Source of the DNA: a virus
Lineage: Duplodnaviria > Heunggongvirae > Uroviricota > Caudoviricetes
Length of the DNA stretch: 5,162 bases
IMG/VR virus record: IMGVR_UViG_2671180574_000017
Reading direction: 5' to 3' (one strand)
Shown here: positions 1-5,162 of the stretch, in pieces
Position numbering within the stretch: position 1 is the stretch's first letter
Layout: each line of letters opens with the position of its first letter
The notes under the pieces: model-generated
The model's database searches: none
What the model was told of the DNA's origin: nothing
What the model saw: only the letters and a program-made list of their open reading frames with translations
Translations under genes and position numbers: made by a program

Positions 1-39
1 AACAAATGGTAGTGTCCGCTATTGCCAGTACACCTCAGG
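1..39 (+). mobile_element. Right-terminal fragment of an IS3-family insertion sequence; the body of this copy lies upstream of the window
   Basis: Bases 1-39 are identical to 2098-2136, the sequence just after the transposase stop of the IS at 1214-2136; the two diverge after ...cctcagg. The end resembles an IS3-group terminal repeat (GTGTCC.CTATTGC...CA). Confidence 0.7.
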
Positions 40-164
40 GTATAAGGGGTTATGGCCACCGGACTACCAAACGGCTGCCAGCCCTCTTTCAGTTTATGTG
101 TCAGCTTTTCCGCAAGATCTGACGGCGGCGCCGCCCTGACAACATCATAGTGTTTAAATGCCAT
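40..164 (-). CDS. Small lambdoid-phage late-region protein (DUF1737-like, tentative), 3' end disrupted by IS insertion
   Basis: Minus-strand ATG at 164-162 preceded by GGTGGA Shine-Dalgarno; translation MAFKHYDVVRAAPSDLAEKLTHKLKEGWQPFGSPVAITPY, then the frame runs into the IS end at 39/40 and continues open to the window edge. Family assignment is from memory of the motif, not a search. Confidence 0.45.
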
Positions 165-357
165 GGTTCTTTCCACCATCTGAAAAATAATTCTTTAAAA
201 TACCTGACATGTAATACAGAAAAAACACAAAACCATACCTTAAATAAAAACCTGATTATCAAGCAGATATGCATGGATAAACTACAAGACGAGATATAAA
301 CCACCCTGCATTTAAATAAACAATAAACAACATCAGAAAAATAATTCTGCTCTATGG

Positions 358-384
358 TTTACATTCAAAAATATCATTTATACT
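358..384 (+). promoter_or_regulatory. Candidate sigma70 promoter for the plus-strand ORF starting at 425
   Basis: TTTACA at 358-363 and TATACT at 379-384 (15-bp spacer, short), followed by AAGGA RBS at 414-418 and ATG at 425. Confidence 0.3.
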
Positions 385-424
385 TTTCAGAACATCACCA
401 GCAAGGCATAAACAAGGAAACTAA

Positions 425-760
425 ATGAAGTGGATTGTGATTGATACAGTTATCCAGCCATCATGCGGAATATCTTTTTCAGTCATATGGAGTAAAATAA
501 AATTAATAATCTGGTATCAATCGGATGCTTTCTTACCTCCTGAAAGTATATTTACACTGACTCACACAGGCATCATGCTCAATAACAAAGTGCTACCTGT
601 AACCATTTACAACGTAGTACCATTCAATAAAACATTCTGGAATTCAATCAAAAATAGCCAGGAATGCCCTACAAATACAGATAACGTATTGAATGAATGC
701 TTTAATAACCGTTGCACTCTGCAAATATGTCCTTATGGACTAAAACAACAAAGTCCATAA
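425..760 (+). CDS. Hypothetical small AT-rich protein (111 aa, Cys-rich C-terminus); only the first 14 codons lie outside the duplicated module
   Basis: ORF-track ORF with a good RBS and candidate promoter; a stop-free 111-codon frame across a ~35% GC stretch is unlikely by chance; the stop codon sits inside a 12-bp perfect palindrome. No recognisable homology. Copy 2 (3636-3821) lacks the start. Confidence 0.35.
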
Positions 761-1213
761 GGAGTTTACTCACATCTGACAAAATCAATATAAACAGCCC
801 CTCCGGAGAGGGGCTGGAGAGTGGCGCTATGTGCCATTGCATGGTGCCGGGTGCCTCCCGGTGAATTCAGTACCAGCACCTGAATCCGCGATTATCCCAT
901 ATACCTACTCGCTGATTGCCCCTCCGCACAGGGGGATTCACCATGCCAGTTTCTTTTAACAAACTCCCCGCAAACCAGACAACAGTCAACCGCCTGAATT
1001 GTGAAGTATTTAAAAATTTCTCCCGCTAACTGATACCCGGCTAACAGTCTGGCGTTTTCTTTTTCAGCAACGGGAAAGCAACAACCACCACACCCGCCAC
1101 CAGCACACCGTCAGCCAGCACTGACATTATCCGGCTGCTGCAATGCCATTCACAAAAACAGTAAGCAATCACTTTTTACCGTAACAGGTGATAATCCAGA
1201 TATGTATCTACCC
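467..1213. repeat. 747-bp duplicated module, copy 1 (100% identical to 3528-4274)
   Basis: Line-by-line comparison shows identity across the full 747 bp at offset 3061; different flanks on both sides in each copy. Confidence 0.9.
796..815 (-). terminator. GC-rich hairpin (AGCCCCTC-CGGA-GAGGGGCT), possible minus-strand intrinsic terminator; also at 3857-3876
   Basis: Perfect 8-bp stem; on the minus strand it is followed by GTTTATATTGATTTTG (interrupted T-run). Confidence 0.3.
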
Positions 1214-2089
1214 ATCGCTGAAAAATACGCGTTAATCGAACAATGGCGACAACAATTTCCCATTGAAGCGATGTGTCAGGTATTTGGTGTATCCAGGAGC
1301 GGTTATTACAACTGGGTACAGCATGAACCCTCAGACAGAAAACAAAGTGATGAGCGGCTAAAACTGGAGATTAAGGTGGCACATATCCGCACTCGCGAAA
1401 CATATGGAACCCGGCGGCTCCAGACGGAGCTGGCAGAGAATGGCATCATCGTTGGTCGTGACCGACTGGCACGTCTTCGTAAGGAGCTAAGGCTACGCTG
1501 TAAGCAGAAACGCAAGTTCAGAGCGACTACGAACTCGAACCACAATCTGCCAGTTGCGCCAAATCTGCTGAACCAGACGTTCGCTCCTACAGCACCAAAT
1601 CAGGTCTGGGTGGCGGACCTGACGTATGTTGCCACACAGGAGGGATGGTTGTACCTCGCTGGCATCAAAGATGTTTATACGTGCGAAATTGTCGGCTACG
1701 CCATGGGAGAGCGCATGACAAAAGAGCTGACAGGTAAAGCCCTGTTTATGGCGCTCAGGAGCCAGCGCCCACCTGCCGGGCTAATCCACCACTCTGATCG
1801 AGGTTCACAGTACTGCGCATACGATTACCGGGTCATACAGGAGCAGTCTGGTCTGAAAACATCAATGTCGCGTAAAGGTAACTGTTACGACAACGCTCCG
1901 ATGGAAAGCTTCTGGGGAACGCTGAAAAATGAGAGCCTGAGCCACTATCGTTTTAATAACCGGGATGAAGCCATCTCAGTAATACGGGAATACATTGAGA
2001 TTTTCTACAATCGTCAGCGTCGTCACTCTCGTCTGGGGAATATCTCCCCGGCAGCCTTCAGGGAAAAATATCATCAGATGGCTGCTTAA
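1202..2089 (+). CDS. IS3-family transposase OrfB (DDE integrase-core domain) fragment; authentic IS sequence starts at 1214, and the first four codons (MYLP) come from the adjacent module
   Basis: Translation aligns with IS3 InsF-type OrfB (e.g. QFPIEAMCQVFGVSRSGYYNW ... DLTYV ... HSDRGSQY ... CYDNAPMESFWGTLKNE); recalled from memory, not searched. Confidence 0.85.
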   Translation: MYLPIAEKYALIEQWRQQFPIEAMCQVFGVSRSGYYNWVQHEPSDRKQSDERLKLEIKVAHIRTRETYGTRRLQTELAENGIIVGRDRLARLRKELRLRCKQKRKFRATTNSNHNLPVAPNLLNQTFAPTAPNQVWVADLTYVATQEGWLYLAGIKDVYTCEIVGYAMGERMTKELTGKALFMALRSQRPPAGLIHHSDRGSQYCAYDYRVIQEQSGLKTSMSRKGNCYDNAPMESFWGTLKNESLSHYRFNNRDEAISVIREYIEIFYNRQRRHSRLGNISPAAFREKYHQMAA

Positions 2090-2136
2090 AAAAAGAACAA
2101 ATGGTAGTGTCCGCTATTGCCAGTACACCTCAGGAT
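1214..2136 (+). mobile_element. IS3-family insertion sequence, 5'-truncated (orfA and left inverted repeat missing)
   Basis: Carries the transposase OrfB frame and an IS3-like right end; the left end abuts the 747-bp module directly at 1213/1214 with no OrfA and no left terminal repeat. Confidence 0.85.
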
Positions 2137-2321
2137 AGCGGTCATGTGATGCCGGTTTCCCGGTAACTCAGCACCGGTATCTGAGTCAACGTTTTCTCTA
2201 CTGGGTCATTTCCGATACGCCCTGCCTGCTGACAGGCTTTCATCACATCTGAAAATATAGCACCCTGACTGATACTGTAGTACCTAAGGTTCCAGAAACT
2301 GTGATGTATCCGGCACAGAAA

Positions 2322-2544
2322 AGCCCCTCCGGAGAGGGCTGGAGAGTGGCGCTATGTGCCATTGCATGATGCCGGGTGCCTCCCGGTGAATTCAGTACCA
2401 GCACCTGAATCCGCGATTATCCCATATACCTACTCGCTGATTGCCCCTCCGCACAGGGGGATTCACCATGCCAGTTTCTTTTAACAAACTCCCCGCAAAA
2501 CAGACAACTGTCAACCGTCTGAATTGTGAGACATTTAAAAAAAA
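2322..2544. repeat. Third, diverged copy (roughly 97% identity) of the 223-bp core of the module (matches 796-1018 and 3857-4079)
   Basis: Direct comparison shows a handful of substitutions and one 1-bp indel; homology ends sharply on both sides. Confidence 0.85.
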
Positions 2545-2562
2545 GGCCCGCAAAAGCGAGCC
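2537..2562 (-). terminator. Rho-independent terminator immediately downstream of the minus-strand tRNA-Arg
   Basis: Minus-strand RNA GGCUCGC-UUUU-GCGGGCC (one U-G wobble) followed by eight U residues. Confidence 0.7.
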
Positions 2563-2576
2563 AGGGAAAATAAGTG

Positions 2577-2653
2577 TGGCGCGTTGTACTGGATTCGAAC
2601 CAGTGACCGATTGCTTAGAAGGCAATTGCTCTGTCCGGCTGAGCTAACAACGC
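2577..2653 (-). tRNA. tRNA-Arg (anticodon UCU)
   Basis: Manual cloverleaf: acceptor GCGTTGT/ACAACGC, D-stem GCTC/GAGC, anticodon stem ATTGC/GCAAT with loop CTTCTAA, T-arm ACTGG-TTCGAAT-CCAGT, discriminator G, encoded CCA. Confidence 0.85.
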
Positions 2654-2666
2654 ATGATGCAGATAA

Positions 2667-2743
2667 TGGACCGCCATCGGGGACTTGAACCCCGCGCAGC
2701 CAGCTTCGAAGGCTGGCGCTCTTTCCTGATGAGCTAATGGCGG
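2667..2743 (-). tRNA. tRNA-Arg (anticodon UCG), phage-type
   Basis: Manual cloverleaf: acceptor CCGCCAT/ATGGCGG, D-stem GCTC/GAGC, anticodon stem CCAGC/GCTGG with loop CTTCGAA, T-arm CGGGG-TTCAAGT-CCCCG, encoded CCA. Confidence 0.75.
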
Positions 2744-2750
2744 TATGTGA

Positions 2751-2796
2751 TGGTGGCCCTTGCTGGATTTGAACCAGCGACCTGGCGATTATGAGT
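2751..2796 (-). tRNA. 3' partial tRNA-Ile (CAU): 46 nt from the anticodon loop to CCA, with the 5' half replaced by unrelated DNA (att-like remnant)
   Basis: Identical to the 3' 46 nt of the intact tRNA at 4910-4985; identity stops at the anticodon stem-loop boundary. Confidence 0.8.
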
Positions 2797-2905
2797 TGGT
2801 TGATAACCCTTTACTTACAGATACTTAGCGATACTTTTCAATACCTTAGCATTTTTTAAAACTACTGTATAAATACCTGTATATACCCCAAAATACTTCT
2901 TTACG

Positions 2906-2953
2906 GTATCCTATAGGTATCCTGGAGCAGAACAAGCGATTTTCCAGGATACC
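2906..2953. promoter_or_regulatory. Cluster of GGTATCCT repeats (two direct, one inverted) between the tRNA fragment and the integrase start; candidate integrase arm-type sites or int operator
   Basis: GGTATCCT at 2906-2913 and 2916-2923; perfect 11-bp inverted repeat GGTATCCTGGA (2916-2926) / TCCAGGATACC (2943-2953). Confidence 0.35.
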
Positions 2954-2976
2954 AGATCGCTTGGTGGGGTGTATGA

Positions 2977-3528
2977 GTGAAATTATTCAGATTCTCTAAA
3001 GTAAAAATTGCAGAACTGCCAACGCCGGAACATGGACAGGTCGAATATGGTGATACGGAGGTTAACGGGCTGCGTGTCCGTGTAGGTTCGTCTGGTGTGA
3101 AAAGTTTCTGCATTTCCCGTAAGCGTAACGGAAAATTTATTCGTGCAACGCTGGGGCGTTTTCCTGATCTGAGCGTGGATAATGCCAGGGCTAAAGCTAT
3201 GGAACTCCTTGGCGAAGTCGCCACAACGGGGATAAATCCGAACATAGCAAAGCGCACTAACAACAAGGCCATGATAACGCTGAGTGAGGCGATTGACGCC
3301 TACGTAAAAAATCGTGGCCACCGCCTGAAACCCGCCACAGAAAAACAGTACCGCAGCATATTACAGAATTATTCCGGTGACTGGATGGCCCATACCCTCG
3401 CCAGTATTTCCCGCGAACGGGTGGAACAACGGCATAAGGCCATCACTGATGGGGCTGTATGGTTCGGTGCTGATAAAACCACGTTACGGGCTGGGGTTGG
3501 TACAGGAAGCAAGGCACAGGCCGATTAG
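2977..3528 (+). CDS. Tyrosine recombinase / phage integrase, N-terminal fragment (arm-binding and SAM-like domains), 3'-truncated at the module boundary
   Basis: GTG start after a GGTGGGG RBS-like run; the N-terminal ~150 aa shows the typical arm-binding-domain pattern (GL.VRV...G.KSF......GK.....[15 protein letters not shown]...V..GINP) and then a linker ([11 protein letters not shown]...[13 protein letters not shown]); no catalytic domain; the stop codon overlaps the first base of the module. Confidence 0.75.
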
Positions 3529-4274
3529 GAATATCTTTTTCAGTCATATGGAGTAAAATAAAATTAATAATCTGGTATCAATCGGATGCTTTCTTACCTC
3601 CTGAAAGTATATTTACACTGACTCACACAGGCATCATGCTCAATAACAAAGTGCTACCTGTAACCATTTACAACGTAGTACCATTCAATAAAACATTCTG
3701 GAATTCAATCAAAAATAGCCAGGAATGCCCTACAAATACAGATAACGTATTGAATGAATGCTTTAATAACCGTTGCACTCTGCAAATATGTCCTTATGGA
3801 CTAAAACAACAAAGTCCATAAGGAGTTTACTCACATCTGACAAAATCAATATAAACAGCCCCTCCGGAGAGGGGCTGGAGAGTGGCGCTATGTGCCATTG
3901 CATGGTGCCGGGTGCCTCCCGGTGAATTCAGTACCAGCACCTGAATCCGCGATTATCCCATATACCTACTCGCTGATTGCCCCTCCGCACAGGGGGATTC
4001 ACCATGCCAGTTTCTTTTAACAAACTCCCCGCAAACCAGACAACAGTCAACCGCCTGAATTGTGAAGTATTTAAAAATTTCTCCCGCTAACTGATACCCG
4101 GCTAACAGTCTGGCGTTTTCTTTTTCAGCAACGGGAAAGCAACAACCACCACACCCGCCACCAGCACACCGTCAGCCAGCACTGACATTATCCGGCTGCT
4201 GCAATGCCATTCACAAAAACAGTAAGCAATCACTTTTTACCGTAACAGGTGATAATCCAGATATGTATCTACCC
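3528..4274. repeat. 747-bp duplicated module, copy 2 (100% identical to 467-1213)
   Basis: See copy 1; here it lies between the truncated integrase (plus) and a truncated minus-strand ORF. Confidence 0.9.
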
Positions 4275-4622
4275 CAGATGAGTAATCCGAAGTTCATCCA
4301 TACCACAGGTCCTGGCTATTCTGTTGTACTCCTGAACAAGAGCAAATAATTCTGAATTAGCAACCATGAACTCATCGCAAACCCTCTGTATAGCATCACT
4401 ATTCAGAATAATAACGTCTCTTCCCGAAAGACGATCAGGAGTACAGAACAAAACTGTCAAACGGCTGAAGGCCTTTGCTCGTGCTGCATTGACTATATCA
4501 ATACGCTGCCTAAGGATGAAACACCCCGACGCCTCATCAATATTCACTCTACCCACACCATATGAATGATAAATATTTAATGCTGAAAAAACCATTAGAC
4601 CGTATAACAAACACTCAATCAA
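4269..4622 (-). CDS. Hypothetical protein, probably a 3'-truncated fragment (last codon and stop are supplied by the module end)
   Basis: ORF-track ORF (TTG start; internal ATG at codon 10); AT-rich codon usage; no recognisable homology; the frame ends exactly at the module boundary. Confidence 0.3.
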   Translation of the reverse strand: MIECLLYGLMVFSALNIYHSYGVGRVNIDEASGCFILRQRIDIVNAARAKAFSRLTVLFCTPDRLSGRDVIILNSDAIQRVCDEFMVANSELFALVQEYNRIARTCGMDELRITHLG

Positions 4623-4732
4623 TACTTAACAGAACTTTTATTTTTGACAAACATAAAATATTTTCAACAATATCCTGAGCCAGGTATATTTCAGTATAAG
4701 GCTCTGCCGGAAGGAATCTGGAAGAATGAATA

Positions 4733-4809
4733 TGGCGCGCTGTACTGGATTCGAACCAGTGACCGATTGCTTAGAAGGCAATTGCTCTGTCCGGCTGAGC
4801 TAACAACGC
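4733..4809 (-). tRNA. tRNA-Arg (anticodon UCU)
   Basis: Same cloverleaf as 2577-2653, with one acceptor-stem change giving a G-U pair; encoded CCA. Confidence 0.85.
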
Positions 4810-4822
4810 TGAATACCGATAA

Positions 4823-4902
4823 TGGACCGCCATCGGGGACCCGCCCCCGCACCAACAACCCTGTTATCGTGTCGTCTGCTCTTCCTGATAAGCTAATGGC
4901 GG
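4823..4902 (-). pseudogene. Degenerate tRNA-like gene (homolog of the tRNA-Arg UCG at 2667-2743); acceptor and D-arm kept, anticodon arm and T-loop replaced
   Basis: Both termini match 2667-2743 (TGGACCGCCATCGGGGAC ... CTAATGGCGG); the interior is a GC-rich 45-nt segment with no canonical anticodon arm and no TTC T-loop. Confidence 0.55.
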
Positions 4903-4909
4903 TTTGTGA

Positions 4910-4985
4910 TGGTGGCCCTTGCTGGATTTGAACCAGCGACCTGGCGATTATGAGTCGCTCGCTCTCACCACTGAGCTAAAGGGCC
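4910..4985 (-). tRNA. tRNA-Ile2 (anticodon CAU, lysidine-type; ileX/ileZ-like)
   Basis: Manual cloverleaf: acceptor GGCCCTT/AAGGGCC, D-arm GCTC-AGTGGTGA-GAGC, anticodon loop CTCATAA, T-arm GCTGG-TTCAAAT-CCAGC, discriminator A, CCA; closely resembles E. coli ileX as recalled. Confidence 0.85.
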
Positions 4986-5028
4986 GGGAGCAGAATAATA
5001 ACGGTCCGTAATTAATTCCGCAATAAAA

Positions 5029-5048
5029 AACCCGCTCGGCGGCGGGTT
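5029..5048 (-). terminator. Intrinsic terminator upstream of the tRNA array (tR'-like position)
   Basis: Minus-strand hairpin AACCCGC-CGCCGA-GCGGGTT followed by TTTTTTATT. Confidence 0.5.
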
Positions 5049-5095
5049 GTAGAAACTCTTCTAACGTCAGGCATAAAACGCCCATAGTTATGACG

Positions 5096-5123
5096 AATTT
5101 ACCACAGATTCCGGAAAAATCAA
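5096..5123 (-). promoter_or_regulatory. Candidate lambdoid late promoter (PR'-like) reading leftward into the terminator and tRNA array
   Basis: On the minus strand: TTGATT, 16-bp spacer, TAAATT, then ...ATGGG; this resembles the lambda PR' -10 TAAATT and ATGGG transcript start as recalled from memory. Confidence 0.35.
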
Positions 5124-5162
5124 CCTAGTTACCTTTTTTAACTGCCGCTCAGCCCATGCTTC

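Follow-up and report, generated by a model that had tools for sequence, protein, structure and literature searches.

What does a small, AT-rich reading frame encode when it sits in a prophage late region and is read against the genes around it? The question is raised by a 5,162-nt stretch of viral DNA (IMG/VR record IMGVR_UViG_2671180574_000017; Caudoviricetes), referred to here as the window, in which an open reading frame (ORF) of 111 codons runs from ATG to TAA at 425-760 on the plus strand. A preliminary description, made from the letters of the window alone, had proposed a moron-type membrane or secreted peptide. We conclude that the ORF is very probably iraL, a horizontally acquired paralogue of iraM that is carried as a prophage moron and encodes a small cytoplasmic protein that stabilizes RpoS by blocking RssB. 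iraL is a previously characterized gene, described in CFT073 by Hryckowian et al. 2014 in mBio (PMC4045071), and our finding re-discovers a published gene rather than a new one. Its value lies in correct labelling: the product is IraL, neither a membrane peptide nor an orthologue of K-12 IraM.

Identity and coding status of the frame at 425-760

Profile and pairwise comparisons placed the product in the family of RssB anti-adaptors represented by IraM. The NCBIfam model NF007393, 'anti-adapter protein IraM', scored 162 bits against a cutoff of 121, with residues 1-110 aligned to positions 1-113 of the 114 in the model, and a phmmer search of PDB returned the IraM chain 8twd_A for residues 1-78 (E = 6e-31). 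PHROGs v4 gave a full-length match (window 425-757, E = 3e-72) to phrog_4407, which is listed there as 'unknown function'. Identity to IraM of E. coli K-12 was 61%, gap-free over 107 residues. The CFT073 protein WP_000871291.1 was identical at 110 of 111 positions, L74S being the sole difference, and the exact window sequence is named for Shigella sonnei and for 'MULTISPECIES' Shigella and occurs on at least 999 contigs.

The match to CFT073 extended well beyond the coding sequence. Window positions 35-1213, promoter included, were 99% identical to the CFT073 locus at the DNA level, with 2 differences over the 336 nt of coding DNA and 4 in the upstream 390 nt, none of them within the promoter hexamers; single-base differences close to the start were A/G at 391 and T/C at 422. 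In CFT073 the gene is c1429 (PMC12890032) and is carried on the 'potB island' (PMC4045071), and the locus lies in a prophage adjoining potC/potD. The IraL subtype has been defined by at least 95% nucleotide identity to the CFT073 iraL coding sequence and at least 96% identity in the promoter region (PMC4045071), and the window gene lies within both limits. Orthology with K-12 iraM (b1160) was not found, as that gene occupies a different locus, beside prophage e14 and near ycgX/bluR, and its upstream sequence could not be aligned with that of the window. RefSeq and other annotation pipelines call the product 'IraM'; for this gene that is a family name and not a statement of orthology.

The ORF has a GC content of 34.5%, compared with 29% in the spacer at 166-424 (259 nt) and 45.9% in the window as a whole, in line with the AT-rich 111-residue frame first described. 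That description had also judged such a frame unlikely by chance. Unlikely it is, with 111 stop-free codons having p ~3e-4 per frame at the local composition; however, when the AT-rich segment 166-795 was dinucleotide-shuffled 5000 times, 33 of the resulting sequences held an ORF of at least 111 residues, and length alone does not exclude a chance frame. Homology settles the coding status. We aligned six loci: the window, phage vB_EcoS-640R1, variants at 88%, 75% (a Shiga toxin (Stx) prophage) and 69%, and K-12 iraM. Non-triplet indels in homologues had been named in advance as what would count against coding, and the outcome favours it: across this range of 99-61% identity the sole indel in the coding region was a 3-nt, in-frame deletion in the 69% variant. 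Between iraL and K-12 iraM, differences fell on the three codon positions as 27/18/55, with a dN/dS of 0.146 at a saturated dS of 1.8, and this pattern indicates that the iraL frame is under purifying selection.

Expression signals upstream of the gene

The preliminary description had given the ORF its own promoter and ribosome-binding site, and both were borne out. A sigma-70 promoter can be read at 358-384 on the plus strand, with TTTACA (358-363) as the presumed -35 hexamer, a 15-nt spacer, and TATACT (379-384) as the -10 hexamer; both hexamers are unchanged in CFT073. A consensus promoter scanner did not call this pair because it accepts only spacers of 16-18 nt. The 5' end of the CFT073 iraL mRNA has been mapped in log phase by 5' RACE, as ACATCACCAGCAAGGCATAAACAAGGAAAC, and a sigma-70 promoter was proposed (PMC4045071). 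The published 5'-RACE sequence, ACATCACCAGCAAGGCATAAACAAGGAAACCA, is an exact match to window positions 392-421, which places the start of iraL transcription at 392, 7 nt past TATACT. The resulting 33-nt 5' untranslated region (392-424, plus strand) is predicted to be unstructured (-3.3 kcal/mol, z = +1.1) and holds a Shine-Dalgarno element, AAGGA, at 414-418, 6 nt ahead of the ATG.

Further upstream, on the minus strand at 313-329, lies a candidate PhoP box, TGTTTA-TTGTT-TATTTA, in reverse orientation and 63-79 nt upstream of the transcription start. At one mismatch or fewer it was the sole match in the window, against 0.10 expected, and 4.6% of the sequences obtained by shuffling the local AT-rich spacer held one equally good; at three mismatches the scan gave 26 matches against 18 expected, not above chance. 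The corresponding position holds a perfect TGTTTA-N5-TGTTTA in one Stx-prophage variant (L016) and a repeat with one mismatch in phage 1717 (L021). The repeat weakly hints at a regulatory site upstream of iraL, and we treat it as a lead only. It attracted our attention only because, within the family, it is IraM that depends on PhoP; Bougdour reportedly found in 2008 that induction of K-12 iraM requires PhoP.

Together with the name given by annotation pipelines, this repeat, kept or improved in the diverged Stx-phage variants, is what could be cited for regarding the product as a functional equivalent of IraM, induced through PhoP/PhoQ on magnesium starvation and binding both domains of RssB. 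We give that reading next to no weight. Identity to K-12 IraM is just 61%, the two genes lie at different loci behind upstream regions that do not align, and a site as good as the PhoP-like repeat has a 4.6% chance of occurring in so AT-rich a spacer. The published behaviour of IraL also differs: it is active without added stress and, in two-hybrid assays, bound RssB's N-terminal domain only, whereas IraM binds both domains (PMC4045071).

The protein: RssB contacts, activity and cysteine tail

The structural framework for IraL comes from IraM. In the IraM-RssB structure (PDB 8TWD), IraM residues 1-78 form a PmrD-like beta-barrel; one cluster of residues (cluster I: I4, I6, W22, K26 and I42) rests on the receiver domain of RssB at the alpha4-beta5-alpha5 face, and two further clusters (T13, C14, F18, W30 and L75; I61, Y62, H63 and I64) touch the RssB C-terminal domain and linker (PMC10844676). 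In the gap-free alignment, all five receiver-domain contacts are identical in IraL, and the clusters that contact the C-terminal domain and linker carry the substitutions T13S, L75I, H63N and I64V. This contact pattern fits the published binding of IraL to the N-terminal domain only, though it is no proof of it. An AlphaFold (AF2) model built with 12 sequences placed strands at residues 2-66 and a helix at 69-75, and its top matches in PDB were 8twd_A (E = 3e-7) followed by PmrD (4hn7 and 2jso).

These contacts bear directly on the proposal of a membrane-inserted or secreted moron peptide whose N-terminus would serve as a signal or anchor and whose four cysteines would form extracytoplasmic disulfides. 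The N-terminal region is hydrophobic, as had been noted, but moderately so: the most hydrophobic 19-residue stretch, residues 4-22, has a Kyte-Doolittle mean of 1.44, includes D7 and Q11, which interrupt it, and falls below the threshold of 1.6 for a membrane span, which no stretch in the protein reaches. Four invariant cysteines could in principle give two disulfides, and overexpressed full-length IraM is insoluble and prone to proteolysis (PMC10844676). Against this, IraM 1-78 crystallizes as a soluble domain with cytoplasmic RssB, with I4, I6, W22 and K26 in the interface (PMC10844676), and IraL copurifies with RssB and is positive in a cytoplasmic two-hybrid assay (PMC4045071). Read against the IraM structure, the hydrophobic N-terminus of IraL supplies the core of a soluble domain and the face that touches RssB. 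That the product is secreted or inserted in the membrane is highly improbable, and we abandoned that part of the earlier proposal.

Published genetics give the gene its function. Deletion of iraL lowers log-phase sigma-S (RpoS) in both CFT073 and S. sonnei, and in CFT073 shortens the sigma-S half-life from ~5 to ~2.5 min; in K-12, sigma-S rises when iraL is introduced together with the 100 bp upstream of it (PMC4045071). Carried over to the window, iraL would be transcribed from its own sigma-70 promoter in exponential growth, as published for the CFT073 allele. The 111-residue cytoplasmic protein would bind the adaptor RssB at its N-terminal receiver domain, and RssB so occupied could not deliver sigma-S to ClpXP, so that sigma-S would be stabilized in growing cells. 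The L74S allele of the window is probably active, and its expression from the prophage may raise the basal stress resistance of a lysogenic host. iraL clearly exemplifies a moron through which a prophage rewires central regulation in its host, here by way of RpoS stability.

Several observations weigh against this interpretation. No Pfam-A family was matched by IraL, by K-12 IraM or by two relatives, even at E = 10. Precomputed tables, unlike our local scan, assign PF11183 (PmrD) to the IraM/IraL family; we treated the discrepancy as a difference in library version and did not use Pfam as evidence. The AlphaFold model is of low confidence, with a mean predicted local distance difference test (pLDDT) score of 55 and values below 50 in the tail (74-111), where it is uninformative about the C-terminal cysteines, and for that reason the PmrD-like fold assignment is carried by the sequence match to 8twd_A. 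Codon 74 (644-646) encodes serine in the window and leucine or isoleucine in the other 12 of 13 aligned relatives, CFT073 IraL and K-12 IraM among them; S74 lies in the helix and neighbours residue 75, which in IraM is the contact residue L75. The host prophage is decayed, in that IS600 truncates the neighbouring DUF1737 gene.

The last two points, together with a truncated second iraL copy in the window, could mean that the Shigella allele is an inactive relic in a broken prophage, no longer expressed or no longer working as an anti-adaptor. We consider this very unlikely. The ORF, the promoter hexamers, the transcription-start region and the ribosome-binding site are all intact, and the exact allele is present on at least 999 Shigella contigs. 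Deletion of iraL in an S. sonnei strain that may carry this allele lowers log-phase sigma-S (PMC4045071).

Nothing in the IraM/IraL-like family as a whole is more strongly conserved than a four-cysteine (Cys4) motif in the C-terminal tail, C81-x10-C92-x4-C97-x4-C102-P-Y-G, encoded at 665-730 on the plus strand. The window protein has cysteines at positions 14, 81, 92, 97 and 102; the four placed by the preliminary description in the last 30 residues are indeed four, though they span the last 31. C81, C92, C97 and C102 are invariant in 13 family members at 54-99% identity. Among 37 cluster representatives that reach down to 19% identity, only W72, C81, C97 and C102 are invariant, and C92 and P103 are retained in at least 90%. 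In the structural work on IraM the tail was removed for crystallization and called less conserved and flexible, and the full-length protein was unstable and insoluble (PMC10844676). Three papers on RssB anti-adaptors (PMC10844676, PMC4428439 and PMC3877760) nowhere use the terms 'cysteine' or 'zinc' in speaking of IraM, and a general literature search on the cysteine motif returned unrelated papers only. As a guess, the tail may act as a metal, Fe-S or redox-sensing module on which the stability or activity of IraL depends. Taken with the PhoP-box-like repeat, the tail raises a speculative possibility, one we hold to be rather doubtful, that IraL responds to a signal and is not a simple constitutive anti-adaptor. 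If true, the Cys4 motif and the PhoP box would tie the level of RpoS imposed by the prophage to metal or redox state and to PhoPQ.

Prophage setting, duplication and relatives

The gene lies within a cassette at 166-795, comprising the AT-rich promoter region, iraL itself (plus strand) and a 3' flank, with a GC content of 0.29-0.35 against 0.46 for the window. We compared the window with phi296, a Sepvirinae phage that lacks iraL. Homology ends at 165, at the start of the DUF1737/NanS gene, and resumes at 796, in STnc100, and ~630 bp in the window replace ~230 bp in phi296. The cassette is thus missing from phi296, deviates in GC and brings its own promoter, all of which supports the moron-type character first proposed. 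In the terms of the moron definition of Juhala and Hendrix, it is an inserted cassette of deviant composition that appears to have a promoter independent of late transcription.

Slot and orientation are shared by the chromosomes of E. coli 042, CFT073 and S. sonnei and by phage vB_EcoS-640R1. iraL, on the strand opposite to its neighbours, is flanked on one side by the Q antiterminator/tRNA region and on the other by the genes for DUF1737(nanS), holin and lysozyme. On the minus strand of the window lie the C-terminus of Q (5088-5162), a tR'-like terminator (5048-5029), and the start of the DUF1737/nanS-type gene at 164, cut by IS600. The prophage small RNA STnc100 (Rfam RF02076) is present in three minus-strand copies at 786-975, 2311-2500 and 3847-4036, scoring 132, 124 and 132 bits against a gathering threshold of 47, and the first of these is convergent with iraL. 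Two further minus-strand families lie between iraL and the tRNAs: a 43-residue DUF3927 ORF (1041-1172 and 4102-4233), of the TciB-like moron family phrog_1470, and a 117-residue ORF (4272-4622; phrog_2873, unknown function). With Q, tR', the tRNAs, STnc100, DUF3927 and DUF1737 all read from the minus strand, iraL is antisense to Q-dependent late transcription, as its orientation against the late operon had been described. The slot is also the one where related phages carry Shiga toxin genes. Within the STnc100 stretch, a short ORF is annotated in RefSeq genomes as a partial 'hypothetical protein' pseudogene.

The 3' end of iraL carries the perfect 12-bp palindrome that had been reported around its stop codon: arms at 730-741 and 752-763 (plus strand), 100% complementary over 12 nt, flank a 10-nt loop, and the stop codon (758-760) falls in the right arm. 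The RNA hairpin at 730-763 has a predicted energy of -17.5 kcal/mol (z = -5.9). Its left arm encodes the conserved C-P-Y-G-L and its right arm the S-P-stop of a four-residue extension specific to IraL. In the variants at 88% and 75%, the hairpin has lost 3-5 of its 12 pairs with no compensatory changes, and K-12 iraM has no comparable hairpin at its stop codon (z = -0.5) and has its own GC-rich terminator further downstream. We considered a conserved RNA element here and rejected it as unproven, the hairpin being missing in K-12 iraM and degraded in the variants. Because only UUU follows the stem, and because pairs are lost without compensation, we leave the palindrome as a possible feature of this group of alleles, perhaps a weak terminator, perhaps a stabilizer of the 3' end; selection on its structure is not in evidence, and we found no published mapping of the iraL 3' end. 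The T-run of a stronger hairpin at 795-816, 35 nt past the iraL stop, lies on the opposite strand, where the hairpin terminates the convergent STnc100.

Two exact copies of a 747-bp segment account for a second, partial iraL. Positions 467-1213 and 3528-4274 are 100% identical, and the boundary at 467, which had been recognized as lying inside the ORF, is the first base of iraL codon 15. In the second copy (3528-3821, plus strand), codons 15-111 are joined to a fragment of a P4-type integrase, with no promoter, no ribosome-binding site and no start codon. The start-less copy foreseen in the preliminary description is thus a 5'-truncated one; it lacks codons 1-14 and has no in-frame start before M51 at 3636. 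The M51-P111 piece scores 75 bits with NF007393, under the cutoff, and the copy is probably inert.

In outline, the order of segments along the window is A(1-466) + R(467-1213) + X(1214-3527) + R(3528-4274) + B(4275-5162). In S. sonnei chromosomes (L006 and L011), positions 1-1213 run straight on into 4275-5162, at 100% identity. The 2.3-kb insert X holds a 5'-truncated IS600, a second lambdoid segment of the kind found downstream of Q, and the 5' part of a P4-type integrase gene. The truncated IS600 spans 1215-2134 (orfB at 1202-2089, with rve domains), and IS600 ends lie at 1-37 and 2096-2132, the first belonging to the copy that cuts the DUF1737/nanS-type gene. The lambdoid segment carries STnc100 and two genes for tRNA-Arg, and also the 3'-terminal 46 nt of a tRNA-Met/Ile gene. 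From 2751 to 3527 this phage-type 3' tRNA end is followed by the first 183 codons of the integrase (Arm-DNA-bind_3), an arrangement that looks like a P4-like satellite with an attachment site resembling the prophage-borne tRNA. In E. coli L73 the same stretch of 776 bp is unbroken, at 99.5% identity, and adjoins an island with primase and Icd-like genes. Both junctions of X fall inside genes and not at IS ends. The junction at 3527/3528 had no exact match in genome or metagenome contigs and was spanned by no complete E. coli genome, and that at 1213/1214 had no exact match in genome contigs. The duplicated arrangement is either a real, strain-specific rearrangement or an assembly chimera. In the other tRNA region, between tRNA-Arg(tct) and tRNA-Met(cat) at 4810-4909, the middle gene, tRNA-Arg(tcg), which is present at 2667-2743, was not called; the copy at 4810-4909 seems to be disrupted, as both repeat families break off at 4840 and start again at 4882.

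Among known systems, CFT073 IraL is the closest. The likeness covers 110 of 111 residues, ~1.2 kb at 99% DNA identity, the promoter hexamers, the start sequence, the 3' hairpin, the prophage slot and the orientation; the window differs in having its DUF1737 gene cut by IS600, a truncated second iraL 3 kb downstream, and the L74S change. K-12 IraM (YcgW/ElbA), the anti-adaptor of Mg2+ starvation, shares the NF007393 model, the PmrD-like fold region, the five N-domain contacts and the four C-terminal cysteines, but is four residues shorter, lies beside prophage e14 behind unrelated upstream sequence, and lacks the stop-codon hairpin. PmrD (PDB 4HN7 and 2JSO), which protects phospho-PmrA, is likewise a small, unusual beta-barrel that binds the receiver domain of a response regulator; it is ~15% identical to IraL, has no Cys4 tail, and targets PmrA and not RssB.

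Members of the family also occur in Stx phages. We found an IraM-family member in 46 phage records, 41 of them at 60-80% identity (~71-73% among the matches listed), and most of the 46 come from Stx2c, Stx2a and Stx2k phages. The copies are unannotated in most of the listed records, and we found no functional study of IraM-family genes from Stx phages. In phage 1717, gp43 (3501-3824 of L021) lies directly between stx2cB and a SASA esterase gene, and the 75% variant (3001-3336 of L016 and L017) has this arrangement, between stx2B and nanS-p, in two chromosomes. The cysteine tail, the PhoP-like box and the stx2-adjacent member offer testable hypotheses on how the anti-adaptor family is controlled. 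The Stx-phage genes, including those of phages 1717 and 2851, resemble iraL in their moron slot, which lies between nanS-p and the toxin or tRNA region, their orientation antisense to the late operon and their length class, and the P0005 variant shares with IraL a C-terminus of the KQxSP type. They differ in being ~71-75% identical to IraL and in lying directly downstream of stx2B, and they form a third subtype of the IraM family, antisense to the toxin genes.

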